Source: Trypanosoma brucei
Taxonomy: Eukaryota
Reading direction: 5' to 3'
Length of the DNA stretch: 64,000 nucleotides
Assembly (NCBI GenBank): GCA_000002445.1
Contig: CH464491.1
Span: 448,001-512,000 of the forward strand
Within the stretch, counting starts at the first letter, position 1. Every line of letters begins with the position of its first letter. Position numbers and translations under genes: made by a program. Shown here piece after piece: positions 1-58,338 of the stretch. The notes below the pieces were generated by a model. It was not told the origin of the DNA and did not search any database. It saw only the letters and a list, made by a program, of their open reading frames with translations.

Positions 1-3000
1 AATGGAAATTTGTATTTTAGTTGTAAGAGTAATGATTATTATATTGCGCTCATTCATGTTACAACTATACCAAATGGACATCTTGTTATTTTGTACTTCA
101 TTCTAACTTTATAACGACATACTCTCACACACATATATTGAATAAATTATTTTGATTATCATTTACTGACAGAAATAACAAAGAAACTTTATTATAAATT
201 ATATCAGAGCGGCATCTTGAGCACCAAGTTATTACAAGGGAAATTATTTTACAACACATTACGTTTCTTGTAAATCTTTTTTTTATACTTGATACAGACA
301 GACATATATTCTCAAGCAGTTCAACGAAATTACACTGCTTCATTAAAATATTTTAACTTATTGTATTTGTTTTGTAATAACATAATTTATCCTATTACAT
401 TTCCTTTCGGAGCTATTTGAACTAACCGTTTATGAAGATGTCATACATTCTGAAGCCTCTTGTACACAAGAATGAAGTGGCGCTGTTCCAATAGAAAATC
501 TTACTTCCCTATCTGGCCTTTGTTTTGTAACGTAACGTTGGCTTGTAATATTTTATGCCCCAAGATGTAACGAACCGAGAAGAAATTTCGTTTGTTTTAC
601 AGACGCCTCCAAATAACCGCAACTGTATGTTTGTTATTTTCTGGATTGTTGAGTCGTCCCCTGCTCTTTTTGCAACATTGAAACCCATTACTTTTCTTCA
701 CTAGTGCGGAATATATTCTATGTTGATGTTTTGTTGTTACTTGGTGATATTTGCGTACCCTACTACTGTAAGATAGCGAAGTAGAAGAACTACATTTCTA
801 AGGGTCGGAGGTTTCTGTTCCTACAGAAGTAAAAGAGTGTTGTGTTTCAAGGGATGCGTGCGCGGTGTGGCAATGTTGTTGAGCAGCGATACTGTCTTGA
901 ACCCATGAAACCAAAAGGTGGAGAATATTTGGCCCCTCAAGGGTAATTATCATAGCATTCCGTGTGTTATTTTTTATAATGGAACTGAAGTGAGCCAGGT
1001 GGGTTTTTTAAATCTTCATACATGAACAGTGGTGTCAATTACCTCCTAGTGCATGCATGATACCGTCTTTCATATATGGATATTGAACCTACCAAACACC
1101 CAATGAATACGACCTTACGCCGTGCGTCACTTGTCTTCAATATTTTGAATGTTGTGTTCACTTAACTTTTCTCACCCTCAATAGTGTTGGAGGTGTGGAT
1201 AAGACTCAGAAAACGCGATACAGTTACGCTACAGAACAATGAAGTAGAGGGTAACGTGCTGATGGCAAAATTTTTACTTTCAATGCCTTTGCGGCCGGCG
1301 TCCTTTCCTCCTCGGTGAAACTCACGATTTTCCTTTCAACATCCCTGCGTTAGATGCATGGCACGCGAAAACATAACCATACCCACATGCAACCGTGTGC
1401 ATTAGGAGTGTGCATAACCGGGATGTTGGGAAAGAGCCCCCGATGCGACGCCGTATCATTTATGACTATGCCGGTGGTCGAAAACAGGGAACTTCCTCGT
1501 TCTCATTGGGCCCACCCATTCATAAGGTCTGGCGGTCGGGGATGGCCTTAATGCGACAGGTACACGTACGGCGACGCTGGAGACGGCTGCATTGTCAACG
1601 GGTAAGCCAAGTTCCTCTATGCGTCCTAATCTTTAGAGTTTTTGGCAGTCGGTTGGTTGAGAGCTCCTGTTTTGAAGAAAAGTAGCCATACCATCTGTTC
1701 TCTGAAGTGCTAAGGGTATCGCGTTTTCTTCCCGAACTCGAAGACGCACTACTTTGGGGATATATAGACTGGCTGTCATTCAGTGCGGATGTTGAGCACA
1801 ACCAAGGGTCCAAATTTTCACAGATGTTAATGAGGTGCCGGGGATCTTTCCCAGTCGAAAAGGCTCGAAATGATCGAGCATTCATGTGACTTCGAAGTCG
1901 ACTTCCACCTTCCGTAAACACAACCACGTACCGGAGTGGGCGAACACATACATTTCATGACGCCCTCGTGTTGGAATAGTATGGTTTCCCATAGGAGAAT
2001 GAACGTCCATACAGATCAGGAATAACAATGGTGCAATACAAAGTCAAAATCCTGTGGTGACCCCTCGGAGTATCAGTCACGTTTTCGCTTACAAAGAAGG
2101 TGCAAACTACGCTCGTGTGTATGCGGTCCCTGGGCCTATTCGCAGCAGTTATGTGTTGCAATCTCACTGCGGGGTCCAATGCGTATTTTAAAGGGCCAAT
2201 TAGAAAAACTTATACGTGGACTTACACAACTAATCCTTTGTCAGTTGATCCAGGTAAACTTTATCAGCAACAGGGTCATGCGGCTGTTCTTTATGGAATG
2301 TAATGGTGGGAAATAGGGGTGAGACCGTGAGGATATTTCGAAACTGCAAATCGTTAGTGAAACAGAAGGGAAAGGGAAAACATTACAGAATAAACTGGTA
2401 AGAACTGATACTCTAAATAAAGGTTGAGAGGGATCTCGCAGAACTGAGTGCAGTTTTGAGCGGTGATTGACAAAAGGCTGTCTCATTAGTTGATTGAGGA
2501 AGAAACTTACGTACCTGGTCCAGTGTGTCGCTTCCTTCTCTTCACTCTAACGGCAACATTGCATTAACTGAATTCTGCAGCTGTTGAGGGGGATGGGCAC
2601 GCAAAAGTACCTTATGTGTTTGGAGGCGCGGGCAAAACCAGGAAAAAGTAGTTCTCGTCACCCTGGTGAGTTTCACCCTCTTCCGTGCAGGTTTGTCTTT
2701 TAGCGTTTTCGGTACCGTTTTCAACATTGCTGTTGGCGCTGCTTCCACGCGGCAACTGCATCCCAATATTCAGATGTCCCTTTAATCCTGTATTTTTCCA
2801 TGTTGCCGATGATTATCGTTTCTGTGCCCGATGAAGCGTCTAAACTCACCAGTTCATTTGTTGAAACTTTTCACTCCTTCTTATTGAATATCCCTATTTT
2901 TTGCGGCGTATGAGAGCCCTCCCCCATTCGTCTTTTGCGTTTGCTTTTATACCCACCCACGGAAAGCAAATTTATTTTCTCCTCGGAATCAACATCCAAG

Positions 3001-4736
3001 GAGCTTTAAGTGTGGAGTGCACCCTGATTTTCGCCTTCGGAGCACCAGACCTCCACTGTATTCAGCCATTCAGGTATTGGATGACTTCTAGGATATTGCC
3101 GGTTTATTATGTCTGAAAAGCATCCTTTTTGGCACTTGACGTGAGGCGGTATTCCACAGCCCACTTTTTTGGTCTTTTCAAACAAATATCAGTCGTGCTT
3201 ATTTGAGCATATCTTGTTTGTTTGCGTGCGACGAAATCTCAGCAATCGTGTATGCCGACTGAGCTTCCTTGCTTTTCGCTTTCTCCCCGCTTGAAATGGA
3301 AACGGAGAACCGTAGAAATAATACCATAGTCCATCTTTGCTTAGATGGGTCGAGAGTGGAAAGCTGTCGGTGTTTCTTGGGAGTTTTGCTCAGGTGATAG
3401 CACAACTCTTGGCTTTATGAATCTTGTCGTCGCTGCCGCCGCCATTTGCCACACATAGATTGGTACCCCTTCGGTTGCCACAATGCGGCGCCAAACAGAT
3501 TTGGCGTATTGGCATCGCTCACCATTTTTCCACGACTCGTGAAAGCGCATGGCTCTCGAGTGCTCGGTCCAAGTGATTTGTACTCCACCTCCGCCGGCAC
3601 TTCCGTAAAGTGTCCCGTTTATCGCTCGGTCACAAATTACAGAACCTGCTATAACTTACCTCTAAATTCTCCTCGTCCGAATTGAGTCACTGTGAGTTCC
3701 ATTTCGTAACTGAATAAACTGTGCGCGAGTCCAGGGATCACGTTCAGTTCTTTGCCCGGTCGTCCCATCATTATGAGCCCGGACCCGACACAGACGTATG
3801 AGGAACAGTGCATGTCGACTCTACACTCCCCGATAAAGTGTTGTTTACTCCGTTTTGTTTTTGAGGGGGCTGTGAGAAGAACTGCCAAGCCCATACCCAT
3901 TGCCAAGTAATGTACAAAACTCATCGATCCCCATTTTCATACCACGGTTAAGAGAAGCGTCGCAAAGAGTGAGTTTTTGAAACGCCCACCGAACCCAACC
4001 GTCACCGCCTCCGCGCGGGAGGCAGGTTAAGGGCACTTCCACCACCTTCTTTACCGCCAGTAAATTAACTTCCATACAATTGAGGACTCGCACACTACAG
4101 AAATCCCCCTCCCAAGCAATTTTAACGGCCGGCGTTGTAGGCACAACAAAGGTTAAAATATTACTCCTCCTGCTCGTTTTCTCTTCATTCAACACAAAAA
4201 AGGCAATGTATGGACTGTTCTGCCCGTTTTTTTTTTTTTGAGAGAGAGGGATAGTGAGGCTTCTGCAGCGGTAAAATTGCGAGTCAAGTGTTACCACGCT
4301 GTGGGAGGACACGACGTATAATGAAGGAAACTTTTTTTTTGCTTGCGGGCGGTTTAAAGGGATATGCGTTTAAACCATTATATCTTGAGTGGGTGGCGCC
4401 CGAAAAAGATCGCGAAGCAGGCATGAAGCTTGCGAAACTTCTTGGGGCTCAAAGGACCAACGACACGGTGAACTTGACAAAATTTGAGGGATGTAGAAGC
4501 TACATGTTGAGGAGAGCACAATGCATTAGCACGGTTCCCTAGGGCACTGGCTTTATGGAAACGGTGGTAAGATACCCGCTGGGGAGGCGAGCCAAACGTG
4601 CATTCATTTGGTGTATGGACTGCTAATAAACAAATGTAACAGGCGGAAGTCGGAGTTGTCGCACGCGGTGAGGCACCCCGTTGAGACGGAAGTATGGACC
4701 GAAACAACCCTCACATATAAAATGAAGCGTTCGCGT

Positions 4737-4751
4737 CACCCCCCCCCCCCC
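4737..4751. repeat. Homopolymer C15 tract. A (TG)9 tract follows at about 4829-4846.
   Basis: Seen in the sequence. Both are low-complexity tracts in the gene-free left region. Confidence 0.9.
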
Positions 4752-5660
4752 AGCGGCAGACATTGGCATATATGCGTTCGCGCTTGCACTTCATGTCAAT
4801 TTCGCCACTGAAAGGAGCACTCCATCCTGCGTGTGTGTGTGTGTGTGCTTGCCTGTGCATCTTTTTTCGAACGCCGTTGTTTTTATGTACGAAACGGAGG
4901 GCGGGGAGGGAGGGGAATCCCAGGTGGAAGTTATATTTCATGGCAGGGGAATATTGCTGACAGAATACTGTTACCAGTGCCCCGGCTGGTGGGGTTCGCC
5001 AACACGAAAGGACAATAGTGAAAAAAAATAAGGACTGGGGGAATAAAAATTTACAGAAGTTACACAGTTAAAAACACCATGAGCAATCGACGATTTCCAG
5101 ACCCTCTAGCACCACGATTCGGAGGTATTATTACACATTCCAGAATTTGTAGAGGTTCAAATTCAAGTTCCACGGTTCCAGTAATCCATCAGCCCTCACA
5201 AAACGTGTAAAGAAGCGCCAAGTTACTTCATGAGTCTCATCCGACCCATCTCATTCACGCTTTTCAAATACATACACTACAAAAAATCTACTCCCTCCGG
5301 TCTCCACAGGACGCACAAATTTGTCAGCGTGAACCCTGGTCCATGACGTAGAAAGTGTCTTGCGCCACCCGAAATACGTGGCTGAAGGATTTCGCGGGAC
5401 GGATACAAACCCCGCTGGGTAAAAGTGTGTGGGAGTTATCGTGCCTTCCGGGACCTATCTCCACAGCACATGTTTTCACCTCAGGGCAAAACGCATGTGG
5501 CCGCCTCATGCGAAATGGCATATCGGGAACACACCGCACACAGCACATCGGATACTAGCACCTACTCGACTACAAACAAGTAGAAAACGCACATGCATAG
5601 TACATTACGCCCCAGCAACGGGGGTCCTCCCCATTGATGGACGTGATGCGTGCCGAAGAA

Positions 5661-5728
5661 CGTGGACTGTAATTTTACCCGAGGTGTAAGCGCGATGAAT
5701 CACACCTCGGGTAAAATTACAGTCCACG
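5661..5728. repeat. Perfect 27-bp inverted repeat: arms 5661-5687 and 5702-5728 with a 14-nt loop. It forms a potential long hairpin about 100 bp downstream of the last minus-strand gene.
   Basis: Read directly: cgtggactgtaattttacccgaggtgt ... acacctcgggtaaaattacagtccacg, which are exact reverse complements. Confidence 0.9.
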
Positions 5729-5822
5729 AGCCTCGTCCACACGACCGGATGGGCAACTGCGTTGGAAACTACTTATGAAACAGAGTTAATAGTTTCTTTT
5801 GTTTAGAGGCGGGGGTCACACG

Positions 5823-6995
5823 CTATTTTCTCAGTGGTCGAATAAGCCATCTAGGGTCTGAAATGTCCGAGAGAGGGCACACACCACTAAGTTTCATATA
5901 CCGGCGTGCGCCCCACACAGTGTGGACTTCTACAGAGCTATTCTCCAATAGACGTCTGTAGGCATTTTTCTGTTGGAAGGAAGAATCTCGAAGGGCTCTA
6001 AACCAACTTGTTTGGTTGAGATATTTGGGCATCAGGTTCCTCCACGCACTAATTGAGGTTGGGAAGTGCAAAACCACGCCACTTTCGACCGAAACACTGT
6101 GGGGATAATGAAAAAAACGCGTCTCGTAATCGAGGGATATAATTCCCCTTCGCAGCAGTAATTTTGGCTTCACATGCTTCGGCCTACTGACGCTCCATGT
6201 CAACACTATAGTCCACATAGTTTGATCACATAGCCAAATAAGGCTCTGGCGTCTCAAATTAAAGAAAACTTTCAAAGCCTCTTTTAGCGCCCACACTCTG
6301 GCTATCACGCCTCCGCCATTAAGATACGACCTTCCCGATTCATTTACCCTTAAAATATTTTCAACTCCCACACCCCTTGTTGCATCCATTGCGTCATCAA
6401 ACAACTTCTTACAGTTTTGAAACTCCGACCTCCCCTCCGGCTTCACCATGATATTCAGCTGAGGAGTAGCGCAACCCTTCTCAGCGGTAAACAACATTGG
6501 AGGTGTCATTTCTCCTCTTAAAATAGCCGTCTCGTTGAACGCTTCAGGGATTTTTGGTGTAGTGTCGAGGAAATGCTTCACTGCCTCCTCCCTAACACCT
6601 GCATCGGTGAAATAGGTATCTCCCCCATCGAACAACATAATCACATCACTTTCGCGCATCTTCTCACGCACCATGTAACTATAAATCCAGTCCCACCTCT
6701 TCACATGCCCATACCAGCCTCCCATGCCCAGTGTCGCAACCGATGCATTAGTGAGTATAGAACTTACAATCATCCTGCACCACCCCGGAGAGTACCTCGT
6801 GTGCACCACAGCATAATACACCCTCGGCGTATAATTTCTACCACTGTCTTTCTTTCTTAACAACGTCCCTGTTTCCTTGTTCCTCACGCTCATTTCTCCC
6901 AAAAACCAGAGCACAGTTAGCAGCATCACCCCCACCATCGCGGCATATAGTCTTCCCCTTGTGCCCCCATAAATTGCCCTAGCCCCTTTCAACAT
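5823..6995 (-). CDS. Type-II membrane protein, tandem paralog 1 of 2, with a DGGDT (DxD-like) motif. Possibly a Golgi glycosyltransferase-like protein. The ORF could extend to 7010 if the first ATG is used.
   Basis: ORF of 395 aa with an N-terminal hydrophobic anchor (VMLLTVLWFL). It is about 75% identical to the adjacent paralog and shares the motifs WCRMIVSSILTN, GMGGWYGHV, FDGGDT and KHFLDTTPKIPEAFNETAILRGEMTPPML. The glycosyltransferase assignment is inference only. Confidence 0.6.
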   Translation of the reverse strand: MLKGARAIYGGTRGRLYAAMVGVMLLTVLWFLGEMSVRNKETGTLLRKKDSGRNYTPRVYYAVVHTRYSPGWCRMIVSSILTNASVATLGMGGWYGHVKRWDWIYSYMVREKMRESDVIMLFDGGDTYFTDAGVREEAVKHFLDTTPKIPEAFNETAILRGEMTPPMLFTAEKGCATPQLNIMVKPEGRSEFQNCKKLFDDAMDATRGVGVENILRVNESGRSYLNGGGVIARVWALKEALKVFFNLRRQSLIWLCDQTMWTIVLTWSVSRPKHVKPKLLLRRGIISLDYETRFFHYPHSVSVESGVVLHFPTSISAWRNLMPKYLNQTSWFRALRDSSFQQKNAYRRLLENSSVEVHTVWGARRYMKLSGVCPLSDISDPRWLIRPLRK

Positions 6996-7128
6996 ATAAA
7001 AACTTCGCAAAAAAAAAATGGATTTACTTGGAGAAGGGTGATGCTTTTCCCCTCAACTCGGACACAGTGCGGATGCGTTTTTTTTTTTTTTAACTCTGGC
7101 GAACGGTTCGTAAAAATTCCGTGCGATG

Positions 7129-8292
7129 TTACTTTTTCAACTGCCCACTGAGCCAACTGGGGTCGGAGATGTTAGATATGGGGCATACGGTACTTAACTT
7201 AGCGTCTTTGCGGGAACCCCAGAAAGTGTACATCTCCACAGTGGAATTTTTCAGCAAACGAATGGAGGCCTCCCGCTTGGGGGAAGAATTGCTCAGTGCT
7301 CTATACCAATTTATCTCACTCAGATACTGTGGCAATGTACGCTTCCACACGTGAACTGGTCCCGCAAAATGCAGTATCATTCCACTCATAACCATCGTCT
7401 TGGATGGATAAAGGAAGTAACGCGTCTCATAGTCAAGAGATATTAGCCCCCTTCTCACCAACAGCGCTGGCTTTATATTCTCCGGCCTGGTGATACTCCA
7501 TATTAGCAAGAGTGCCCACATTGACTGGTCGCAACCCCAAACAAACTTTTTTTTTCTGAGGTTAAAGAATGCCTTCAGAGCCTCTTCTAGTGCCCACACC
7601 CTGGCAATTATTCCTCCCCCGTTGAGATACGATCTTCCCGATTCATTCGCCCTTAAAATAGAACGCAACCCTGTGCGATTGGAAACTACGAACGCCTCGT
7701 TGTACAGTTTACTGCACTGATGAGCGCGCTCGCTCTTAGGTGTCTTTACCATGAAATGACTTTGAGGGGTGAAACAGAAATTTTCGGCGGCCATCAACAT
7801 TGGAGGTGTCATTTCCCCTCTTAAAATAGCCGTCTCGTTAAACGCTTCAGGGATTTTTGGTGTAGTGTCGAGGAAATGCTTCACTGCCTCCTCCCTTACA
7901 TCCTCCCCTGTGAAGACCGTATCGCCCCCATCAAATATCACAATCACGTCACCCTCACTCATCTTCTTCTGCCGTAGGTACCGGTACAACCACAACCACC
8001 TGCTCACATGCCCATACCAGCCTCCCATGCCCACTGTGGCAACGCTCACATTAGTGAGTATCGAACTTACAATCATCCTGCACCACCCCGGCGCGTACCT
8101 CGTTTCTGCAACAAGAAAAAACACCCTTGGTATGTGATTACCGTAACTTCCATCCTTCTTCCCCTCCACGCTAGTTTCCCCACTCCCTACATTTCTTAAC
8201 CCCAACCACCAAAAAAATAACATCAGCACCAACCCCATAACATACAACCTGCCCCTTGAATCCCCATAGAATTCCCTAACACCTTTCAGCAT
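7129..8292 (-). CDS. Type-II membrane protein, tandem paralog 2 of 2. Same family as 5823-6995.
   Basis: ORF of 387 aa with a signal-anchor (LVLMLFFWWLG), colinear with paralog 1. Central blocks are near-identical at nucleotide level, for example 6490-6590 versus 7800-7900. Confidence 0.6.
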   Translation of the reverse strand: MLKGVREFYGDSRGRLYVMGLVLMLFFWWLGLRNVGSGETSVEGKKDGSYGNHIPRVFFLVAETRYAPGWCRMIVSSILTNVSVATVGMGGWYGHVSRWLWLYRYLRQKKMSEGDVIVIFDGGDTVFTGEDVREEAVKHFLDTTPKIPEAFNETAILRGEMTPPMLMAAENFCFTPQSHFMVKTPKSERAHQCSKLYNEAFVVSNRTGLRSILRANESGRSYLNGGGIIARVWALEEALKAFFNLRKKKFVWGCDQSMWALLLIWSITRPENIKPALLVRRGLISLDYETRYFLYPSKTMVMSGMILHFAGPVHVWKRTLPQYLSEINWYRALSNSSPKREASIRLLKNSTVEMYTFWGSRKDAKLSTVCPISNISDPSWLSGQLKK

Positions 8293-9611
8293 ACAAACAG
8301 ATGTCTCTAAGAAATAAAAGGGTACGCACCCAGTGAGTGGACAACTACACGTTAAATCAAGGGAAACGAATAGTTAATGTTAAACATTAGTTTCCCAACA
8401 GTTAAGGCATGTAAATCCGGCACACCACAACACCAAAAACACATAAATATGTGCAACACCGATTATCTCGGGATGCTGATGCTCCCACTCGCCTACATAT
8501 GAAGGCAGTGGGTCTCAATGCATACCTCGTTAAATGTGAACCCAACGATAACGATATTCTGTGGGACAGATTCAAATAGATGAGACAACAGAGTAGTGTG
8601 CAGGCATTCAATACGTACAACAGTCAGACCTGTTGAGTTTGATTTAGTATTCAATAAGCGCGCTCATAAAGTAAGGCATATTGACCTTCACGTACACATA
8701 ATCGTTGTTTCCATCACACTGCCGCGTCTGTTGTGCATTCCCCCCATTTTCTTATCCACCTTCCCACCCAGATACCACAAACAAACCGCATGATCTCTCT
8801 TACACTTTCGAGCCAATACCGTCACCGAAAGTATACTGACAGGCAGCCAGACAGGGTAAGATTTGGTTCTAATGACATAATGCTGCGTAGAGCAAAGGTA
8901 GTGGGGGGGGGGAAAAAAAAGGATGTGGAGAGGGATGGAGGAAGGAAGGGAACGAGCTGCATAGCAGGCCATTGCTCAGCCGAAAGGTGATTTTTGATGT
9001 TCCGTTATCAATGCATCGCTCAAACTGTTTGGACCTCGAACAACAATTATGCATCACAGCATCAGTGGCCAAAAAGAAAACTAGTAGCACACATATACAC
9101 ACACACGAACATAAACATAAACATAAACATAAACAGGGATGAATGACCTATGAGGAAGAGGGTGGATAAAAACAAAATAATAAGGATGGATGATACTCGA
9201 TTCAGTGTGAGCTGAGTTAAAAATTATGTCTTCAAAATGGCTCTACTGCCGTCAGGCTGACAGGAAACTATTGACTGTCATCATTAGAGGGGAAGATAAT
9301 GCATTTGAGTGCCAAAACTACAAATGGCTCTCGCGCAACAGGACAGGGGCCACATCCCCACGGCATTAAATGGTTGCCACTGGCCCAAGGGATGCTGCGC
9401 TGTATTGTTTCAACAGCACATAAGCAAAAACACATAAATATGTGCAACACCGATTATCTCGGGATGCTGATGCTCCCACTCGCCTACATATGAAGGCAGT
9501 GGGTCTCAATGCATACCTCGTTAAATGTGAACCCAACGATAACGATATTCTGTGGGACAGATTCAAGTAGATGAGACAACAGAGTAGTGTGCAGGCATTC
9601 GATACGTACAA

Positions 9612-9712
9612 CAGTCAGACCTGTTGAGTTTGATTTAGTATTCAATAAGCGCGCTCATAAAGTAAGGCATATTGACCTTCACGTACACATAATCGTTGTT
9701 TCCATCACACTG
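9612..9712 (-). ncRNA. Candidate C/D-box snoRNA, candidate 1 of the repeat unit. Coordinates are for copy 2. It recurs at the same offset in each copy.
   Basis: Minus-strand reading: CAGU-GUGAUGG (C-box-like) ... about 90 nt ... GGUCUGA (D box) - ACUG. The flanking 4-bp CAGU/ACUG inverted segments could form the terminal stem. No covariance search was run. Confidence 0.3.
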
Positions 9713-9956
9713 CCGCGTCTGTTGTGCATTCCCCCCATTTTCTTATCCACCTTCCCACCCAGATACCACAAACAAACCGCACGATCTCTCTTACACTTTC
9801 GAGCCAATACCGTCACCGAAAGTATACTGACAGACAGCCAGACAGGGTAAGATTTGGTTCTAATGACATAATGCTGCGTAGAGCAAAGGTAGTGGGGGGG
9901 GGAAAAAAAAGGATGTGGAGAGGGATGGAGGAAGGAAGGGAACGAGCTGCATAGCA

Positions 9957-10060
9957 GGCCATTGCTCAGCCGAAAGGTGATTTTTGATGTTCCGTTATCA
10001 ATGCATCGCTCAAACTGTTTGGACCTCGAACAACAATTATGCATCACAGCATCAGTGGCC
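9957..10060 (-). ncRNA. Candidate C/D-box snoRNA, candidate 2. Coordinates are for copy 2.
   Basis: Minus-strand reading: GGCCA-CUGAUGCUGUGAUGCA ... GGCUGAGCAAUGGCC. GGCCA and UGGCC are a perfect 5-bp terminal stem. UGAUGC and GUGAUGC are C-box-like, with CUGA near the 3' end. Length is about 104 nt. Confidence 0.3.
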
Positions 10061-10193
10061 AAAAAGAAAACTAGTAGCACACATATACACACACACGAAC
10101 ATAAACATAAACATAAACAGGGATGAATGACCTATGAGGAAGAGGGTGGATAAAAACAAAATAATAAGGATGGATGATACTCGATTCAGTGTG

Positions 10194-10270
10194 AGCTGAG
10201 TTAAAAATTATGTCTTCAAAATGGCTCTACTGCCGTCAGGCTGACAGGAAACTATTGACTGTCATCATTA
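10194..10270 (-). ncRNA. Candidate C/D-box snoRNA, candidate 3. This is the most canonical of the three. Coordinates are for copy 2.
   Basis: Minus-strand reading: UAAUGAUGAC (exact C box AUGAUGA) ... CCUGUCAGCCUGACGG (CUGA, the D' box) ... UUUGAAGACA (C'-like UGAAGA) ... CACACUGAAU (D box CUGA). It is about 85 nt long, with box spacing typical of C/D snoRNAs. Confidence 0.4.
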
Positions 10271-13200
10271 GAGGGGAAGATAATGCATTTGAGTGCCAAA
10301 ACTACAAATGGCTCTCGCGCAACAGGACAGGGGCCACATCCCCACGGCATTAAATGGTTGCCACTGGCCCAAGGGATGCTGCGCTGTATTGTTTCAACAG
10401 CACATAAGCAAAAACACATAAATATGTGCAACACCGATTATCTCGGGATGCTGATGCTCCCACTCGCCTACATATGAAGGCAGTGGGTCTCAATGCATAC
10501 CTCGTTAAATGTGAACCCAACGATAACGATATTCTGTGGGACAGATTCAAATAGATGAGACAACAGAGTAGTGTGCAGGCATTCGATACGTACAACAGTC
10601 AGACCTGTTGAGTTTGATTTAGTATTCAATAAGCGCGCTCATAAAGTAAGGCATATTGACCTTCACGTACACATAATCGTTGTTTCCATCACACTGCCGC
10701 GTCTGTTGTGCATTCCCCCCATTTTCTTATCCACCTTCCCACCCAGATACCACAAACAAACCGCATGATCTCTCTTACACTTTCGAGCCAATACCGTCAC
10801 CGAAAGTATACTGACAGGCAGCCAGACAGGGTAAGATTTGGTTCTAATGACATAATGCTGCGTAGAGCAAAGGTAGTGGGGGGGGGGGAAAAAAAAGGAT
10901 GTGGAGAGGGATGGAGGAAGGAAGGGAACGAGCTGCATAGCAGGCCATTGCTCAGCCGAAAGGTGATTTTTGATGTTCCGTTATCAATGCATCGCTCAAA
11001 CTGTTTGGACCTCGAACAACAATTATGCATCACAGCATCAGTGGCCAAAAAGAAAACTAGTAGCACACATATACACACACACGAACATAAACATAAACAT
11101 AAACACGGGATGAATGACCTATGAGGAAGAGGGTGGATAAAAACAAAATAATAAGGATGGATGATACTCGATTCAGTGTGAGCTGAGTTAAAAATTATGT
11201 CTTCAAAATGGCTCTACTGCCGTCAGGCTGACAGGAAACTATTGACTGTCATCATTAGAGGGGAAGATAATGCATTTGAGTGCCAAAACTACAAATGGCT
11301 CTCGCGCAACAGGACAGGGGCCACATCCCCACGGCATTAAATGGTTGCCACTGGCCCAAGGGATGCTGCGCTGTATTGTTTCAACAGCACATAAGCAAAA
11401 ACACATAAATATGTGCAACACCGATTATCTCGGGATGCTGATGCTCCCACTCGCCTACATATGAAGGCAGTGGGTCTCAATGCATACCTCGTTAAATGTG
11501 AACCCAACGATAACGATATTCTGTGGGACAGATTCAAATAGATGAGACAACAGAGTAGTGTGCAGGCATTCAATACGTACAACAGTCAGACCTGTTGAGT
11601 TTGATTTAGTATTCAATAAGCGCGCTCATAAAGTAAGGCATATTGACCTTCACGTACACATAATCGTTGTTTCCATCACACTGCCGCGTCTGTTGTGCAT
11701 TCCCCCCATTTTCTTATCCACCTTCCCACCCAGATACCACAAACAAACCGCATGATCTCTCTTACACTTTCGAGCCAATACCGTCACCGAAAGTATACTG
11801 ACAGGCAGCTAGACAGGGTAAGATTTGGTTCTAATGACATAATGCTGCGTAGAGCAAAGGTAGTGGGGGGGGAAAAAAAAGGATGTGGAGAGGGATGGAG
11901 GGAGGAAGGGAACGAGCTGCATAGCAGGCCATTGCTCAGCCGAAAGGTGATTTTTGATGTTCCGTTATCAATGCATCGCTCAAACTGTTTGGACCTCGAA
12001 CAACAATTATGCATCACAGCATCAGTGGCCAAAAAGAAAACTAGTAGCACACATATACACACACACGAACATAAACATAAACATAAACATAAACAGGGAT
12101 GAATGACCTATGAGGAAGAGGGTGGATAAAAACAAAATAATAAGGATGGATGATACTCGATTCAGTGTGAGCTGAGTTAAAAATTATGTCTTCAAAATGG
12201 CTCTACTGCCGTCAGGCTGACAGGAAACTATTGACTGTCATCATTAGAGGGGAAGATAATGCATTTGAGTGCCAAAACTACAAATGGCTCTCGCGCAACA
12301 GGACAGGGGCCACATCCCCACGGCATTAAATGGTTGCCACTGGCCCAAGGGATGCTGCGCTGTATTGTTTCAACAGCACATAAGCAAAAACACATAAATA
12401 TGTGCAACACCGATTATCTCGGGATGCTGATGCTCCCACTCGCCTACATATGAAGGCAGTGGGTCTCAATGCATACCTCGTTAAATGTGAACCCAACGAT
12501 AACGATATTCTGTGGGACAGATTCAAATAGATGAGACAACAGAGTAGTGTGCAGGCATTCAATACGTACAACAGTCAGACCTGTTGAGTTTGATTTAGTA
12601 TTCAATAAGCGCGCTCATAAAGTAAGGCATATTGACCTTCACGTACACATAATCGTTGTTTCCATCACACTGCCGCGTCTGTTGTGCATTCCCCCCATTT
12701 TCTTATCCACCTTCCCACCCAGATACCACAAACAAACCGCACGATCTCTCTTACACTTTCGAGCCAATACCGTCACCGAAAGTATACTGACAGGCAGCTA
12801 GACAGGGTAAGATTTGGTTCTAATGACATAATGCTGCGTAGAGCAAAGGTAGTGGGGGGGGAAAAAAAAGGATGTGGAGAGGGATGGAGGAAGGAAGGGA
12901 ACGAGCTGCATAGCAGGCCATTGCTCAGCCGAAAGGTGATTTTTGATGTTCCGTTATCAATGCATCGCTCAAACTGTTTGGACCTCGAACAACAATTATG
13001 CATCACAGCATCAGTGGCCAAAAAGAAAACTAGTAGCACACATATACACACACACGAACATAAACATAAACATAAACATAAACAGGGATGAATGACCTAT
13101 GAGGAAGAGGGTGGATAAAAACAAAATAATAAGGATGGATGATACTCGATTCAGTGTGAGCTGAGTTAAAAATTATGTCTTCAAAATGGCTCTACTGCCG

Positions 13201-14826
13201 TCAGGCTGACAGGAAACTATTGACTGTCATCATTAGAGGGGAAGATAATGCATTTGAGTGCCAAAACTACAAATGGCTCTCGCGCAACAGGACAGGGGCC
13301 ACATCCCCACGGCATTAAATGGTTGCCACTGGCCCAAGGGATGCTGCGCTGTATTGTTTCAACAGCACATAAGCAAAAACACATAAATATGTGCAACACC
13401 GATTATCTCGGGATGCTGATGCTCCCATTCGCCTACATATGAAGGCAGTGGGTCTCAATGCATACCTCGTTAAATGTGAACCCAACGATAACGATATTCT
13501 GTGGGACAGATTCAAATAGATGAGACAACAGAGTAGTGTGCAGGCATTCAATACGTACAACAGTCAGACCTGTTGAGTTTGATTTAGTATTCAATAAGCG
13601 CGCTCTTTTTTTTTGGGAGAGGGTTACTTCTATTTGCTATATTATTTTTCTTGAACTGCAATGCCTTGCGTGAAGAAAATTATGAGGTGAAAAAAAAAGG
13701 TGTCAAGTTTTTGCTGTTATGGAATTGGTTTTTTTAATGCTTACTTGCTAAACTTTTTTTTTTTGGAGCAGAAGTGTTTACACATTTTCTTTTTTTCAAC
13801 TCATCATCCTGTCTTCCATTTTGTTATGTAACTGATCTTTATACAAATAAGAATGGATATTTGCAATGGAGAACGTATCGGTAGGATGGATGTGAGTTCT
13901 GACCCTTTATTCTGTGATCAGTTGTGGGATTTGCAATATATCTCTCGTGCGTTTTTTTAGAAAAAATATACCAAAGGATGAACAACTTAATGGTAAACGT
14001 TGGATCTTTTCTGCCGAATTTTTTCTTTCTTTTCTTCCATAACTTTTTTTTCTTGGAAGGTGGTTCTTTTCTTAACTTCTACCAAAGCATCGCCGCGTTA
14101 TGCAGTGCAAAGAGGCGAGTTTTTTTTATGTCGATCGAACCACCCTTTAAAAACAAGCAAAACCACGGATACGTAAACGTGTTAATGAGGTTGAGTGATA
14201 GCTTTTGTGACCAATCACCTCACGTGTGGTAACGGTAAGTAAAACAAAACGATGTAAAATGCGGCAAGGCAACAACGCATATGCGCAGTCACTTATATAC
14301 GAACAAATAACGAAATGACATATATATAATGGCAATTCATAAAAAGTGAGAGTAACCATGCCTTTGCAGTTGTGGAATCGTTGTTTTCCCTATTTCATCG
14401 ATTCCCTTGGTGGTTTGCCTTCATATGAAGCTGTGTCGGGCGCTTTCGACATACCCATCAATGCAACAATTCAAACTTGCACTCAGTCACTTTTTCCTTT
14501 TCCCCGTATCGGCGTGAGCTCTACGCTATTTCTCCTCCACTCTGTAGATATTGAGACGCTTGAACGATAACGTATATGAAATGCCCAGCAGTTGCAACCG
14601 CAAGCTTACACATGGATCACTGGACCTTTCCCATGCATAAAGCTAAATGCCATCTCCGAGGCAAGGCAAGAGAGTCGTGAAATACATGATCAAACGAAAA
14701 AATACGAAATGAGGCGACAAACGGCGGACTTCGCTCCGCCCAATAACTCAAATAAATAACACGCACCATATCCTGATTGCTTTACATAACATCCATCTCG
14801 CCACCCCTCGTCAGAACAAACAATTC

Positions 14827-19678: not shown

Positions 19679-20674
19679 CTACAATTTCTCCACCCACTTC
19701 TCATAACCCTCCCAGGGAGTGGACTCTCTGCAAATATCTTTTAATCCGCCCTCGCCCTGCTGGAACACCATAAAATGAGGAATTCCAGTCACCTTAATGA
19801 ACGGATGCGTGCGGTAGAGATATTTTGGGTTACCCAAATATACGGAGCGTTCAACATTGCATTGCACATAAACGACGCGGCGCTTCTCCTTCGCTGCCTT
19901 CACTGCGCGCTGCACCATTGGCTCTGCAAGAACACACGGAGGACACCACGACTTGTGGGTTTTGGGATGCGACACACCTTTTATAAGCACCACAAGGATA
20001 TCACCGGGTTGCAGTGCGGCTTTGACCTTCTCAAGTGTAGCATCGAAGTCCCTTGGATTTTTTACCAGAATGTTATCTGTATCATTCGCTGGGCCCATCG
20101 CTGTTTCGACTGGCGGATTGTTAATAAAAAACATGTGCTCCTCATGCGCTTCCACCGCTTCCTTGACAAGTGCTTCGGAAAGTCCAGCGGTGTCACGAGG
20201 AATGGGGCGAAAGGTTTCTGCGCGTCTGAAAAGACGGAGGCAAGTGGCGGGTCCCGAGTTGGAAGAAACAACTCGATGATACATTCCGGGGGGGAGAACA
20301 ATCACGTCACCCATTTTCCCCTCAATGCGTACCCACTCATCCTTCTCATTGCGCACATCCACATAAATAATACCACTTTCCACAATTCGCATTTGTTCAT
20401 CCACGTTAAGGTGTTCCATACTCTCATCCTTCGACGGTGTGGTAAACGTAACCTTCTCCAGTGTTTTGTAACCGAGGTTCCAAATGAGTCGCTGGGCGTA
20501 CGTACGGCCTTCATCGTCATCGGGGTGGCGTTCGTGAAGTGTTGCGACATCTATGCTGCGACTATAAACAAGAAATGTTTCCAATTGCACATCCGTCACG
20601 GGGACGTCTGGTGAGCAGTGACATGGTGCAGTAATATCACCCTCTTGTGTGTTCAATAACCAACTGCTCGGCAT
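19679..20674 (-). CDS. Acireductone dioxygenase (ARD cupin) fused to a C-terminal TRP14/TXNDC17-type thioredoxin-like domain. The ORF track extends to 20716 through a lysine-rich run that is probably untranslated.
   Basis: ARD core: EHLNVDEQMRIVESGIIYVDVRNEKDEWVRIEGKMGDVIVLPPGMYHRVV...CLRLF, matching human ADI1 [50 protein letters not shown]...AMRLF. C-terminal KSWCPPCVLAEPMV...VTGIPHFMVFQQG matches TXNDC17 KSWCPDCVQAEPVV...VTAVPTLLKYG. Confidence 0.8.
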   Translation of the reverse strand: MPSSWLLNTQEGDITAPCHCSPDVPVTDVQLETFLVYSRSIDVATLHERHPDDDEGRTYAQRLIWNLGYKTLEKVTFTTPSKDESMEHLNVDEQMRIVESGIIYVDVRNEKDEWVRIEGKMGDVIVLPPGMYHRVVSSNSGPATCLRLFRRAETFRPIPRDTAGLSEALVKEAVEAHEEHMFFINNPPVETAMGPANDTDNILVKNPRDFDATLEKVKAALQPGDILVVLIKGVSHPKTHKSWCPPCVLAEPMVQRAVKAAKEKRRVVYVQCNVERSVYLGNPKYLYRTHPFIKVTGIPHFMVFQQGEGGLKDICRESTPWEGYEKWVEKL

Positions 20675-20822
20675 TGTTTGATTCTTCCGTTTTGTTTTCT
20701 TTTTTCTTTTTTGCACCTTTAATTAACTTACCTGCACGGGTTTCGCAAAAGTTGACGATGTCTGTAACCTCGATGGGCCCCTAATTAAAGTCCACGATAT
20801 CGGGAACGGGAAGGAAGAGGAG

Positions 20823-20824
<2 letters not shown>

Positions 20825-20878
<54 letters not shown>
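20825..20878. repeat. (AC)27 microsatellite, which reads as (GT)n on the transcribed strand, in the spacer upstream of the ARD-fusion gene.
   Basis: Read directly. Confidence 0.95.
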
Positions 20879-20879
<1 letters not shown>

Positions 20880-21808
20880 CCAAGGAAAGAAAAAAAAGGA
20901 AAGGAAAGGATAAAAAGATTTTTAAAATATATTTCAAGAATGGTTAAAAAACGTATTGAACAGTGATTGGGAAGAGCTCACAAAACAAAATGATGTTATT
21001 AACTCTCACAAAGTTTTCCCCACTTTTGGAGTCCACATGAATGAGCTGAAGTATACCGCGCAGATTTGTGGTTTCACACATCTCCATATTTTGGGGGAGG
21101 GGGGATCGAAACCGAACCACAGTTAAATGTCGTGTCGCATCATTTCAACAGGACCCGAATGTTTGCCGTCACTTGAAATGTATTTTGACATGCCTCTCAT
21201 CCGGGTGATGTTAAGGGAAAAAGGGAAAGGCAGTAAAACAAAAAACAAAAAAACAAAAAGAAAAAAAATAATAACAACAACAAACAAAAAATAAATACCA
21301 ACTACGCGTGAGAAGGCGAAACTTAAAATGTTATGATGATCTGGACATAAGCCGTCCAACCAGCCCCCGTACAGTTATGGGTTGATTTAATATGTGAAGA
21401 TGCCAATTTTTTTTTGTAATTGCGGCCACATTTAAGTGTTATACCCAATTTATTACCATTCTTAACACCAAATAAACGTCGACTAAACAACATATATAAC
21501 AGTCAAAAATAATTTAGAAAAGAAAAATATAAAACAACTTTTATATACGTTACGGAAGTGGACAGGGGGATCGAAATAAGCTTGCGGTGTGCGTGGAGAG
21601 GGAGGGGAAAGGAACAATAATAACAGTGAAACAAGAAAAAAAAAAGGAAAAAGGTCCGGAGCGAAAAAAAAAAACAAATAGAATTAAAGTGGCCCAGCTA
21701 TGCAGAAGTTATGGAACGGTACGAAAAATATTAAACAGGAGTAATGCACAAAGAGGGGGAGAAGGGAAGATGGCACGACATAAAGTACTGACGCGACTTG
21801 CGCCGACG

Positions 21809-56239: not shown

Positions 56240-57112
56240 TCAATCGCTCTCATCACTTTCACAATCCACAAAAGGTTGCAGTGGATACACGACTTCAGGT
56301 TCGTCCCCTGCAACGAGGCTACTGATGTAATCGCCTAAACGCTCTGCCACGCGACGAAGTATTCCTGTCTCTGCGCGGCAGCACCTGTACAAATTGCCAG
56401 GTTGATTGCGACGATCCGAATGTATAGGACAGCGTTCTTCCATATTTGGGCTGGCTCGCTCTTCCGCGTCAACAAGCGGGCTACACGCGGGAATTATGTC
56501 CTCAATCGCTTGCACGGTGTACAACATGGAGTCATCAGGTTGTTGGCTTAACAACCAATGAATAGAAACGCGCGCCATGTTCAACGTATCGCGTGTCGTT
56601 AGAAAAACAACAGCGCCAGTGCGGAGGGGAGTTGCATGTCTGTATCTAAAACTTTGGACAGCATCCATAGCTTCGAATAATTGTTCCACAAGTCTATCTG
56701 GATTGCCCCTGCACGGCAACCAGTTCTTGTCACCCTTCTGCTGAGCCTCCAGGAAATTTGTCTGCGCCTTCTTTATTCCACTAAAATCTTTTAACTTTGA
56801 TATATCCTCTTTCCCTATGTTTGGCGCAATGCCGTGAATATATTTCACCCTCCGCATCCAATCCTCCACAGACTTCTTCTGGCAGCAGAAATCACGGCAG
56901 GAAGGCATGTAAGCAAACCCACCATCGTAAAGAATTTCATTTTGATTTGGTGGTCCCCATGGATGACCGATAGCAAGGTAATGGCCCTCGACGGGGACGT
57001 GGCTTCGTACATTGTCTATGAAACCCACACATTCCTGCGATAAAAGTGTTTGAAATGAGACAAATATCACCGCCGCCTCCGCATCTTCGTCATGAAACTG
57101 GAATTCGCACAT
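56240..57112 (-). CDS. Hypothetical 290-aa protein, Cys-rich.
   Basis: ORF on the coding strand. No domain recognised. Confidence 0.5.
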   Translation of the reverse strand: MCEFQFHDEDAEAAVIFVSFQTLLSQECVGFIDNVRSHVPVEGHYLAIGHPWGPPNQNEILYDGGFAYMPSCRDFCCQKKSVEDWMRRVKYIHGIAPNIGKEDISKLKDFSGIKKAQTNFLEAQQKGDKNWLPCRGNPDRLVEQLFEAMDAVQSFRYRHATPLRTGAVVFLTTRDTLNMARVSIHWLLSQQPDDSMLYTVQAIEDIIPACSPLVDAEERASPNMEERCPIHSDRRNQPGNLYRCCRAETGILRRVAERLGDYISSLVAGDEPEVVYPLQPFVDCESDESD

Positions 57113-58338
57113 GAAGCGATTGTCTCACGACGCAGGCTCAGCAAATTTGGCTATAGCCTACAAACAGAGAAGTGGACACTACACGTAAACAAGAAGAAAA
57201 GGGAAAGAAAAAGAAAAGATTCAAAAAAAAGAGAAGAAGGGGAAGTAATCATAACTAAAAATGCTAACGAGAGAGAAATAAAAACAGTGGAAGAATCCAA
57301 ACATCACACAACCTGTCGTTTATGGTTTGCTAATGTTGCCGCGTGTATGTACTTTCTTGCCCTCGCCACTGAAGAGCTAAACACCATCTTGCAAACGGAA
57401 GTTTTCTCTAAACAAAGATTGATTTATTGGCAAATGTATCATATGCCCTGTTCACATATTTCTTGTATGTCTGCTCGTATTCCTCCTCTTCCTCCGTTCA
57501 GGCTCTATGTGACACTCAAACCCAAAATGCGCGGCAGTATATTTGCGAACATAAGTGTGGGTCGCATGGTTGGATATGAAGCAGCTTGGAGTTCCACATA
57601 CTCAAAGAGAAAAAGATAACTGCATCTGCTTCATATCCAACCATGCGCCTTTTTCTTTCTCTCTCAGTCCTGTCAGACACATACACAGCTCCGTCGGGTG
57701 TGGAGGAGTTTCCCGGGCACACGGCACTGCGTCAAACCCACAGCGGCAACAAAAAGAGAAGGAAAAGCAGACTGTGAGTGAAAAAAAAAAAAGCGGCACG
57801 GCGCATTTGCTCAGCAAAACCAAAGGGAAAGGGGGACCTTTGTTTATCTTATTCACTACGTATGTATACGCATATATATATATATATATATATATAATGA
57901 ATAAAATGAAAGGGAGGAGAATTCAGACAAAATTTAAATGCACCAGCACCAACCCACTGTACGATCAGCAACAACACAAAACACTACCAAACGCTGGTAT
58001 GCCGGAGGGACAAGCGAAGCAAGTATGACCACGATTTTCTCCTGGAAGTTTTCAAGTCCTTGATCGTGATTCTTTTCTTCATTAATTCTAAAGAAATGAT
58101 GACCATAACTATTTTTTTTTCTCCAGTAACACTATTCTTTTTTTTTCTTTTCCTTTGCCCTCCTCCACTAAAGCGAGCACACGTATCATTGTCGTCTATA
58201 TATATATATATATATATATTTACATATATATGTACAGGCGTATATGCAAACACTTCAATAAATCCCCCCTTGGCCAACGCAGGCACCAGTTCGTATGTGT
58301 TTCCAACCCCTTTTTGTTCCTCTACGAGCATATCCTTT

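Follow-up and report, generated by a model that had tools for sequence, protein, structure and literature searches.

Transcription termination in Trypanosoma brucei is currently attributed to chromatin (the histone variants H3.V and H4.V, together with base J) rather than to a signal in the sequence. At the convergent strand-switch regions (cSSRs) and Pol II termination sites described for this organism, such as CTU44 (PMC3447711) and the first cSSR of chromosome 11 (PMC4721609), gene arrays converge on a gap of several kilobases that is free of genes and has no sequence-defined terminator. Islands of ESAG, LRRP and GRESAG4 genes at core strand switches have in turn been discussed as possible scars of chromosome fusion (Tiengwe 2012, PMC3607257, citing El-Sayed et al. 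2005). We analysed a 64-kb window (the whole stretch of DNA under study), which the TB11Cs4 snoRNA families and 100% ESAG protein identity place on chromosome 11 of T. brucei brucei TREU927, and found that positions 1-5822 resemble the known cSSRs in both respects and show no essential difference from them, the small-RNA yield of the entry matched to this locus by coordinates being at the low end. We conclude that 1-5822 is very probably the non-coding DNA of a cSSR in which both Pol II streams end. As such the locus is an ordinary region of a known kind, a textbook feature of trypanosome genomes that adds nothing new, and by coordinate match it appears to be already in published genome-wide lists. 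As in subtelomere-type islands, the genes that close the two arrays belong to families specific to T. brucei: GRESAG4 and LRRP in the left array and a pair of ESAG3-like genes in the right one. Unlike such islands, the gap has no retroelement, RHS or VSG remnant recognisable by tblastn or six-frame Pfam searches.

The original prediction had read 1-5822 as the terminal or strand-switch region downstream of a minus-strand polycistron. Every large open reading frame (ORF) and all 16 snoRNA matches in the window are on the minus strand, as predicted, and the last gene of the array does end at 5823: it encodes the ESAG3-like protein EAN79129 (5823-7010, minus strand), which is 100% identical to the TREU927 protein and forms the right boundary of the gap. 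Gene orientation to the left of the window was determined in two related genomes, T. b. gambiense (L001 16989-10163) and T. b. equiperdum (L002 14496-21302), which align with window positions 1-6827 at 99% and 98.9%, respectively. Both orthologous loci carry an opposite-strand LRRP gene (1399 aa) whose end lies 296 bp outside the window, to the left of position 1, and the 1399-aa orthologue Tb11.53.0001 suggests that a plus-strand LRRP converges from the left in TREU927 too. The TREU927 flanking proteins have consecutive accessions (EAN79128, LRRP; EAN79129 and EAN79130, ESAG3-like), and the gap is therefore without an annotated TREU927 coding sequence. The opposing arrays point at each other, LRRP on the plus strand and ESAG3-like on the minus strand, the left unit ending in GRESAG4 and then LRRP and the right unit in a snoRNA cluster followed by the two ESAG3-like genes. 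Given the opposite-strand LRRP at the left, 1-5822 accounts for the greater part of a convergent strand-switch region of ~6.1 kb from stop to stop (about -296 to 5823); the strand-switch reading is thus supported by the opposing LRRP and the gene-free gap, and the prediction was right about the array end, but the sequence is more than the tail of one polycistron.

The left end of the region is AT-rich, although over ~0.5-1 kb and not over the first 1.3 kb as had been proposed (GC is 0.28 in 1-500, 0.40 in 501-1000 and 0.45 in 1001-1500). This flank (1-1000, plus strand) starts 297 nt past the LRRP stop codon of the orthologous loci and probably comprises the LRRP (Tb11.53.0001) 3'UTR with the flank beyond it. 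The excess of T over A on the plus strand rises to a maximum at ~3.9-5.0 kb and reverses beyond; by base composition, most of the stretch from 1 to ~4000-5000 thus seems to be part of the left, plus-strand unit rather than the minus-strand one.

In the model that we favour, Pol II moving rightwards from the GRESAG4-LRRP unit would meet Pol II moving leftwards from the snoRNA-ESAG3-like unit, and both would stop in 1-5822, within which the stopping points of each polymerase presumably lie. Termination would be set not by a sequence signal but by chromatin, with H3.V, H4.V and base J presumably present on the locus; run-on transcripts would be cleared by RBP33 and the exosome, and overlapping strands would form dsRNA that the nuclear Dicer DCL2 would cut into small interfering RNAs. 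We matched the locus to published records by coordinates across three assemblies and not by sequence, the DAL972 counterpart interval being 443,111-455,920. CTU44, at 447,000-456,000 of Tb927_11_01_v4, gave 268 top-strand and 193 bottom-strand AGO1-bound reads (Tschudi 2012, PMC3447711), with 2.3% of the wild-type small RNAs left in the dcl2-/- line (PMC3447711). Reads of 21-27 nt from the first cSSR of chromosome 11 (443,663-454,995; Reynolds 2016, PMC4721609) were increased in the H3.V knockout (logFC 0.98, p = 0.0018; PMC4721609), and depletion of RBP33 raised transcripts from 58 of 59 cSSRs (PMC9757043). Through these coordinate-matched tables, the CTU44 table among them, the region would yield low amounts of DCL2-dependent small RNA from both strands, and larger amounts after the loss of H3.V, a behaviour that fits a termination zone.

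Beyond this arrangement, the only mild surprises of the region were a small repeated non-coding element and a perfect hairpin, both of which the cSSR model leaves unexplained. The former has a conserved non-coding core at 2705-3260 (plus strand; best conserved at ~2715-2990), which belongs to a low-copy dispersed repeat with at least three copies; weaker homology to one copy reaches 3586. Its paralogues lie on chromosome 10 of T. b. equiperdum (L006 15030-15909), inside another cSSR, and on chromosome 10 of T. b. gambiense (L007 9897-11094), inside a one-directional gene array. Core identity between copies is 90-97%, compared with 64% in the ESAG3-like coding sequences next to them, and the DNA around the core is unalignable between copies. 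This conserved core is a new observation. A retroposon remnant (ingi, RIME, DIRE or SLACS), which would show traces of a reverse transcriptase or endonuclease, a poly(A) tail or a target-site duplication, was discounted for 2705-3260 on domain and alignment evidence, there being no Pfam match in six frames of the window copy and no poly(A) tail or flanking duplication visible in the three-copy alignment. The hairpin had been predicted as an exact 27-bp inverted repeat at 5661-5728 beyond the final stop codon, and it proved to be just that, with arms at 5661-5687 and 5702-5728 and a 14-nt loop, extending to 34-nt arms at 91% complementarity (5654-5735, minus strand). It sits 95 nt beyond the ESAG3-like stop codon, probably within the 3'UTR. 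The folding energy of the RNA is -67.1 kcal/mol (z = -11.4; none of 200 shuffles folded as well), far beyond chance. It was absent downstream of the paralogous ESAG3-like genes in L004 and L006 and is, among the loci compared, specific to this one.

We weighed the possibility that 1-5822 hides a protein-coding or Pol III gene and consider it extremely unlikely. There is no ORF longer than 155 aa in the region and, as anticipated, no recognisable domain, Pfam finding none in the six frames of 1-5822; tblastn searches that used ESAG3, LRRP and every protein of the window likewise revealed no gene in the gap. A tRNA had not been recognised by eye, and searches agreed: ARAGORN gave 0 genes and Rfam none at the gathering score, with no tRNA, 5S, snRNA, 7SL or other Pol III gene in 1-5822, and even at E values up to 5 Rfam returned merely sub-threshold, miRNA-like matches to the hairpin. 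The locus is therefore not a Pol III gene-associated termination site; it shares the end of a polycistron with such sites of trypanosomatids but lacks their Pol III gene. The longest ORF (3845-4312, minus strand, 155 aa) is not a gene; it begins with GTG, measures just 76 aa from its first ATG and has no Pfam match, and in T. b. gambiense a change of T13 to T14 puts its N-terminal part out of frame. The case for a hidden gene draws on two annotations. DAL972 carries a 105-aa ORF in the region (CBH17046; here 4711-4941, minus strand), but it is labelled 'hypothetical protein, unlikely', covers two microsatellites, (GT)8 and C13, and is in another frame in TREU927, where it has 76 aa because C13 in place of C12 shifts the frame; we regard it as not coding. 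At another locus, a copy of the repeat carries the annotation of a 112-aa 'T. brucei spp.-specific protein, partial', but this frame is interrupted by stops in the other copies, and no ORF is open in all of them. The longest ORFs of the region are thus broken in frame between subspecies at homopolymer tracts, and the interval holds no protein-coding gene, as at other cSSRs. Selection on the whole of this non-coding DNA would be another way to account for its low divergence between subspecies (0.09-0.22%, against about 1% nearby): 5 substitutions separate the 5.8 kb from gambiense and 13 from equiperdum, compared with about 50 or more in the adjoining 5.8 kb, which includes two coding genes. 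However, the low-divergence block takes in the 3' 2.7 kb of LRRP, where gambiense and equiperdum differ at 2 positions in 3050 bp, its boundaries coincide with the onset of paralogue-driven divergence in the 5' part of LRRP and in ESAG3, and the simple tracts within it vary freely in length. A shared recent haplotype therefore explains the low divergence, and we judge selection on the whole region to be very unlikely.

Function of the two unexplained features was considered in the same way. The ~560-bp core could be a gene for a non-coding RNA, or it could act in cis at the DNA level, for instance as a boundary or terminator; its plus strand would be transcribed within the upstream unit. The core recurs at least three times in the T. 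brucei group with high identity amid unalignable DNA and far less similar ESAG3-like neighbours, and its graded conservation and variable linker seem to fit constraint better than one tract of gene conversion. Its placement points the same way: in three of three copies it is co-directional with the upstream unit and lies 1.5-3 kb past the stop codon of the preceding gene, two of the three are in cSSRs, and the midpoint between the two stop codons falls within the window copy. Against this, the core has no Rfam match, it folds no better than shuffles on either strand (z = -0.6 and +0.6), the covariation term is essentially zero (-0.4, from three copies), one copy is away from any strand switch, and the copies do not end at the same points, as would be the case for dispersed repeats that have decayed or for segmental duplicates. 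On balance, a functional core seems doubtful. To our knowledge, Pol II termination in trypanosomes has so far not been linked to any DNA sequence. The core would matter if it were systematically positioned at unit ends, and we think it improbable that it would prove to be a functional transcription-unit-end element, whether a non-coding RNA family or the first sequence-specific Pol II boundary or termination element in trypanosomes. The hairpin might act as a Dicer substrate, as a stability element in the 3'UTR of the ESAG3-like mRNA or as a polymerase-stalling structure at the end of the minus-strand unit. Its stability, its position just past the last stop codon of the array and the rarity of perfect hairpins of at least 16 bp (two in the 64-kb window, none in ~45 kb of other loci) would favour such a role, as would its identical sequence in TREU927, gambiense and equiperdum, although this identity is uninformative in a block that differs by merely 0.1-0.2% throughout. 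The other perfect hairpin of the window, at 57563-57647, lies in an ordinary internal intergenic region; such hairpins are therefore not specific to array ends. No U run follows the hairpin at 5654-5735, the ESAG3-like paralogues lack it, and the small-RNA yield of the coordinate-matched cSSR is low. The known siRNA-producing inverted repeats of T. brucei, IR1-IR7, have similarly near-perfect arms but of 422 bp to 10 kb (PMC3447711), compared with 27-34 bp here, barely the length of one siRNA, which rules out a long inverted repeat of this kind. We therefore regard a functional signal in the hairpin as distinctly unlikely. Short perfect hairpins in T. brucei intergenic DNA, two of them in this window, are an uncharacterised curiosity in a species with active RNA interference and, like the conserved core, could prove useful.

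The remaining sequence features of the region were unexceptional. The predicted C15 (4737-4751) and (TG)9 tracts are both present but shorter, as C13 (4739-4751, plus strand; C12 in gambiense, C11 in equiperdum) and (GT)8, or (TG)8 (4831-4847, plus strand; (GT)10 in equiperdum). Together with a length-polymorphic T13 followed by a (GA)4-rich run (4227-4251, plus strand; T14 in gambiense, a 3-nt insertion in equiperdum), these tracts behave as neutral microsatellites. The whole window has 8 homopolymers of at least 12 nt and 4 (TG/CA) runs of at least 7 units, and such tracts are frequent in the intergenic DNA of the genome. A 12-bp palindrome at 1888-1899, GACTTCGAAGTC, was confirmed, and another at 1894-1905 overlaps it, the two forming GACTTCGAAGTCGACTTC (1888-1905); however, chance alone would give about 1.4 perfect palindromes of 12 bp in 5.8 kb, and the first 12-mer recurs at 41095 within a coding ORF, so that it is not above chance. 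Neither the C tract, the TG tract nor the palindrome has a demonstrable signal. Centromeric arrays consist of tandem AT-rich repeats of ~147 bp, and we dismissed such an array here, as the only tandem repeats found were (GT)8 and a 9-nt G-rich unit. A divergent strand-switch or GT-rich start region (as defined in PMC5579346) was also discounted, since the genes converge and, in place of a G/T-rich bias on the coding strand at the kb scale, only isolated T13, (GT)8 and minus-strand G13 tracts are present. Finally, one of the five G-quadruplex-type motifs in the 64-kb window, GGGCGGGGAGGGAGGGG, lies at 4899-4915 on the plus strand.

On the minus strand at 8466-13468, Rfam places the snoRNAs TB11Cs4H1, H2 and H3 in five to six tandem copies each, and the minus-strand ORF at 5823-7010 is 100% identical to a TREU927 protein annotated 'expression site-associated gene (ESAG) protein, putative', the relatives of which are ESAG3-like. 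Together, the snoRNA families and the ESAG match therefore identify the window as TREU927 chromosome 11. The neighbouring ORF, 7129-8292, is a paralogue that is 58% identical to the first. Shadow ORFs aside, every large ORF in the window lies on the minus strand, as the original prediction had said of its genes. The left flank was read from the orthologous loci of T. b. gambiense DAL972 and, through a leucine-rich repeat protein (LRRP) gene, T. b. equiperdum, to which window 1-6827 aligns at 99% and 98.9% identity, respectively. At both loci this 1399-aa LRRP gene lies on the opposite strand and stops 296 bp beyond window position 1; a GRESAG4-type adenylate cyclase gene lies upstream of it in T. 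b. equiperdum. The opposing LRRP and ESAG3-like genes thus make the region a convergent strand-switch region (cSSR) of ∼6.1 kb from stop to stop. In TREU927 the LRRP orthologue is Tb11.53.0001 (EAN79128) and the ESAG3-like pair carries EAN79129 and EAN79130; the accessions are consecutive, which implies no annotated coding sequence between them. The original prediction, which had viewed the region as a terminal or strand-switch region, is supported in its second form by the orientation of the gene to the left, in T. b. gambiense and T. b. equiperdum alike, and the region is of a kind already known.

The locus itself also seems to be among those in published lists. Tschudi et al. 2012 (PMC3447711, Additional file 3) give Tb927_11_01_v4_CTU44, at 447,000-456,000, as the first convergent transcription unit of chromosome 11, its AGO1-bound small-RNA reads numbering 268 on the top strand and 193 on the bottom; small RNA was 104% of wild type in dcl1-/- and 2.3% in dcl2-/- (PMC3447711). 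In Reynolds et al. 2016 (PMC4721609, S2 Table), the first chromosome 11 cSSR spans 443,663-454,995, and its small RNA rises from 2.7 RPM in wild type to 9 RPM in the H3.V knockout, where 21-27 nt reads are increased (logFC 0.98, p = 0.0018; PMC4721609). In DAL972 coordinates the LRRP gene stops at 443,111 and the ESAG3-like gene at 449,555, and the next conserved gene, an acyl-CoA dehydrogenase, ends at 455,920. Because these coordinates agree, and the nearest other listed convergent region is >200 kb away, both entries very probably correspond to this locus. The matched data point to both strands being transcribed at a low level and with overlap, with nuclear Dicer processing and restraint by H3.V. 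More generally, depletion of RBP33 raises transcripts at 58 of 59 cSSRs, which the exosome degrades (Gómez-Liñán et al. 2022, PMC9757043); 24 of 64 cSSRs are bound by ORC1/CDC6, and subtelomere-type genes occur at some core strand-switch regions (Tiengwe et al. 2012, PMC3607257).

We found no gene within 1-5822. The longest ORF is 155 aa, the maximum given by the original prediction, which had also recognized neither protein domains nor a tRNA. Consistent with this, a six-frame Pfam search of the region gave no match at E up to 1, ARAGORN found no tRNA gene and Rfam over 1-6000 gave no match that reached the gathering score, a relaxed cut-off of E up to 5 adding nothing but miRNA-like matches, below threshold, to the inverted repeat at 5661-5728. 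Searches of 1-5822 by tblastn with the ESAG3-like proteins, the LRRP and all window ORFs gave nothing below E = 0.01, and no DNA repeat is common to 1-5822 and the remainder of the window. A concatenated-ORF query with X spacers had no match in a large protein database, but this search also missed its positive control, a 105-aa DAL972 protein with 64 identical residues, so that it is uninformative rather than negative, and an empty result from a composite query of this type is not reliable. The 155-aa ORF begins at a GTG, only 76 aa remaining from its first ATG, and a T13-to-T14 change in T. b. gambiense frameshifts its N-terminal part. The 105-aa DAL972 'hypothetical protein, unlikely' corresponds to the minus-strand ORF 4711-4941, which crosses both a (GT)8 and a C13 tract; C13 in TREU927 versus C12 gives it a different C-terminal frame from that in DAL972, and in T. 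b. equiperdum other changes in tract length join frames into a 201-aa ORF. Since reading frames are not conserved between subspecies, the DNA of the region is non-coding.

Divergence within the region is low. Against T. b. gambiense, 1-5822 carries 5 substitutions and 2 homopolymer indels; against T. b. equiperdum it carries 13 substitutions together with indels, all of the latter in the T13, T9, C13, (GT)8 and A8 tracts. Divergence is ∼1% over window 13.5-19.3 kb, two coding genes included. Over the 3050 bp that precede the window, a stretch that takes in the 3' 2.7 kb of the LRRP gene, only 2 sites differ between T. b. gambiense and T. b. equiperdum, and high divergence returns only in two sequences with paralogues, the 5' part of LRRP and ESAG3. 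Ultra-conserved non-coding DNA, or constraint specific to the region, is ruled out by the extension of the low-divergence block over the LRRP 3' half; a shared recent haplotype block explains it.

The exact 27-bp inverted repeat of the original prediction was confirmed, with arms at 5661-5687 and 5702-5728 and a 14-nt loop. Its arms extend to 34 nt at 91% complementarity, and the RNA fold has an energy of −67.1 kcal/mol (z = −11.4). The hairpin is therefore real, and it finds no explanation in the convergent reading of the region. Its sequence is the same in three subspecies, which is uninformative because the whole block diverges little. A conserved element of ESAG3 3'UTRs is ruled out, as the hairpin is missing 3' of the paralogous ESAG3-like genes at two other T. 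brucei-group loci (L004 and L006). A second perfect hairpin, unrelated in sequence, has a 22-bp stem and a 41-nt loop (57563-57584 and 57626-57647) and lies in an ordinary internal intergenic stretch between the minus-strand ORFs 56240-57112 and 58339-60741; ∼45 kb from other T. brucei loci contained no more. Perfect hairpins are therefore uncommon, yet not specific to array ends, and that at 5661-5728 is most likely a structure in the ESAG3-like 3'UTR, possibly without function.

Several smaller features had been proposed. The C15 tract measures C13 (4739-4751) and the (TG)9 tract (GT)8 (4831-4847), while the AT-rich start holds for the first 0.5-1 kb but, by base composition, not for the 1.3 kb claimed. 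The 12-bp palindrome at 1888-1899 exists, although ∼1.4 such are expected in 5.8 kb, and a coding ORF contains the same 12-mer again, at 41095. Similar homopolymers and (CA)n runs are common elsewhere in the window. Promoter-type G/T tracts were ruled out as an identity for C13 and (GT)8, which are isolated tracts of variable length directed into the opposing unit; neither the tracts nor the palindrome has demonstrable signal content. The window has five canonical G-quadruplex motifs; that at 4899-4915 on the plus strand, GGGCGGGGAGGGAGGGG, belongs to a 700-bp cluster together with the T13, C13 and (GT)8 tracts. On the plus strand T exceeds A over most of 1-4000, and the cumulative T-minus-A excess peaks at ∼3.9 kb, has a second high at ∼5.0 kb and then declines as in the minus-strand array. 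Read on the plus strand, each of T13, T9, C13 and (GT)8 is of pyrimidine or GT type; their counterparts in the minus-strand array show up on the plus strand as A-runs and (CA)n. Composition and tract polarity weakly suggest that the left 4-5 kb are the downstream tail of the plus-strand unit, and on the same composition reading the minus-strand unit might extend no more than 1-2 kb past the ESAG3-like stop.

The one item in the region that might reward more work is a conserved non-coding core at ∼2705-3260. Window 2676-3276 has a paralogue on T. b. equiperdum chromosome 10 (L005/L006), 80% identical overall and 90-97% in the core 2790-2990. The L006 copy sits in a gene-free 6.75-kb cSSR with an ESAG3-like gene at its boundary; the ESAG3-like coding sequences of window and L006 are only 64% identical, and the remainder of the two regions is unalignable. 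This second cSSR (L006 11308-18059, ∼1.128-1.135 Mb) is laid out like that of the window, an ESAG3-like gene being the last on one side, and its coordinates agree with the published CTU38. When a 69-aa frame of the element was compared with protein-cluster representatives, the single true match was the 112-aa CBH16416 (TREU927 Tb10.389.1100), annotated 'T. brucei spp.-specific protein, partial'; two other matches were repeat artefacts. A third copy is found at the CBH16416 locus (L007; ∼2.93 Mb, DAL972 chromosome 10), and it matches window 2676-3586 over 928 bp (73%) and L006 over 888 bp (82%). Three-way alignment gave ∼2705-3260 as the common core, with differing flanks shared pairwise.

In each of the three copies it is the same strand of the element (plus in the window) that is co-directional with the upstream unit, and the copies lie 1.5-3 kb past the stop of the preceding gene. 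A tie to ESAG3-like genes, which lie beside the window and L006 copies, is ruled out by the third, which stands in a one-directional array with no ESAG3 nearby; the orientation of the element suits the other flanking unit. Nor is the element a small protein, since no frame is open in every copy and the amino-acid changes bear no sign of purifying selection. The 112-aa ORF (L007 10001-10339) overlies one copy, and because its frame has stops in the other two its annotation is probably spurious, to judge by these sequences. A structured RNA is unsupported, the folding energy equalling that of shuffles and covariation among the three copies being nil. We class the element as a low-copy dispersed repeat or an old segmental duplicate whose core is unusually well preserved.

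Other differences between the assemblies lie in the flanking genes. The two tandem ESAG3-like genes of TREU927 (5823-8292) are represented in T. b. gambiense and T. b. equiperdum by one chimeric copy (L001 10001-10840 in DAL972, 279 aa; L002 ∼20330-21300 in T. b. equiperdum), with its junction at window ∼6500-6830/7795, consistent with unequal recombination between the tandem copies. In the LRRP gene, the 5' 800 bp examined, located ∼3.05-3.85 kb left of window position 1, differ by ∼10% between T. b. gambiense and T. b. equiperdum, against 0.07% in the 3' 2.7 kb, a sharp boundary that suggests gene conversion from LRRP paralogues. The T. b. equiperdum assembly has a shorter version of the TB11Cs4H1/H2/H3 array, which in TREU927 consists of five to six tandem ∼1-kb units, each with all three snoRNAs; in the T. 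b. equiperdum assembly the LRRP and acyl-CoA dehydrogenase stops are 9.9 kb apart in all.
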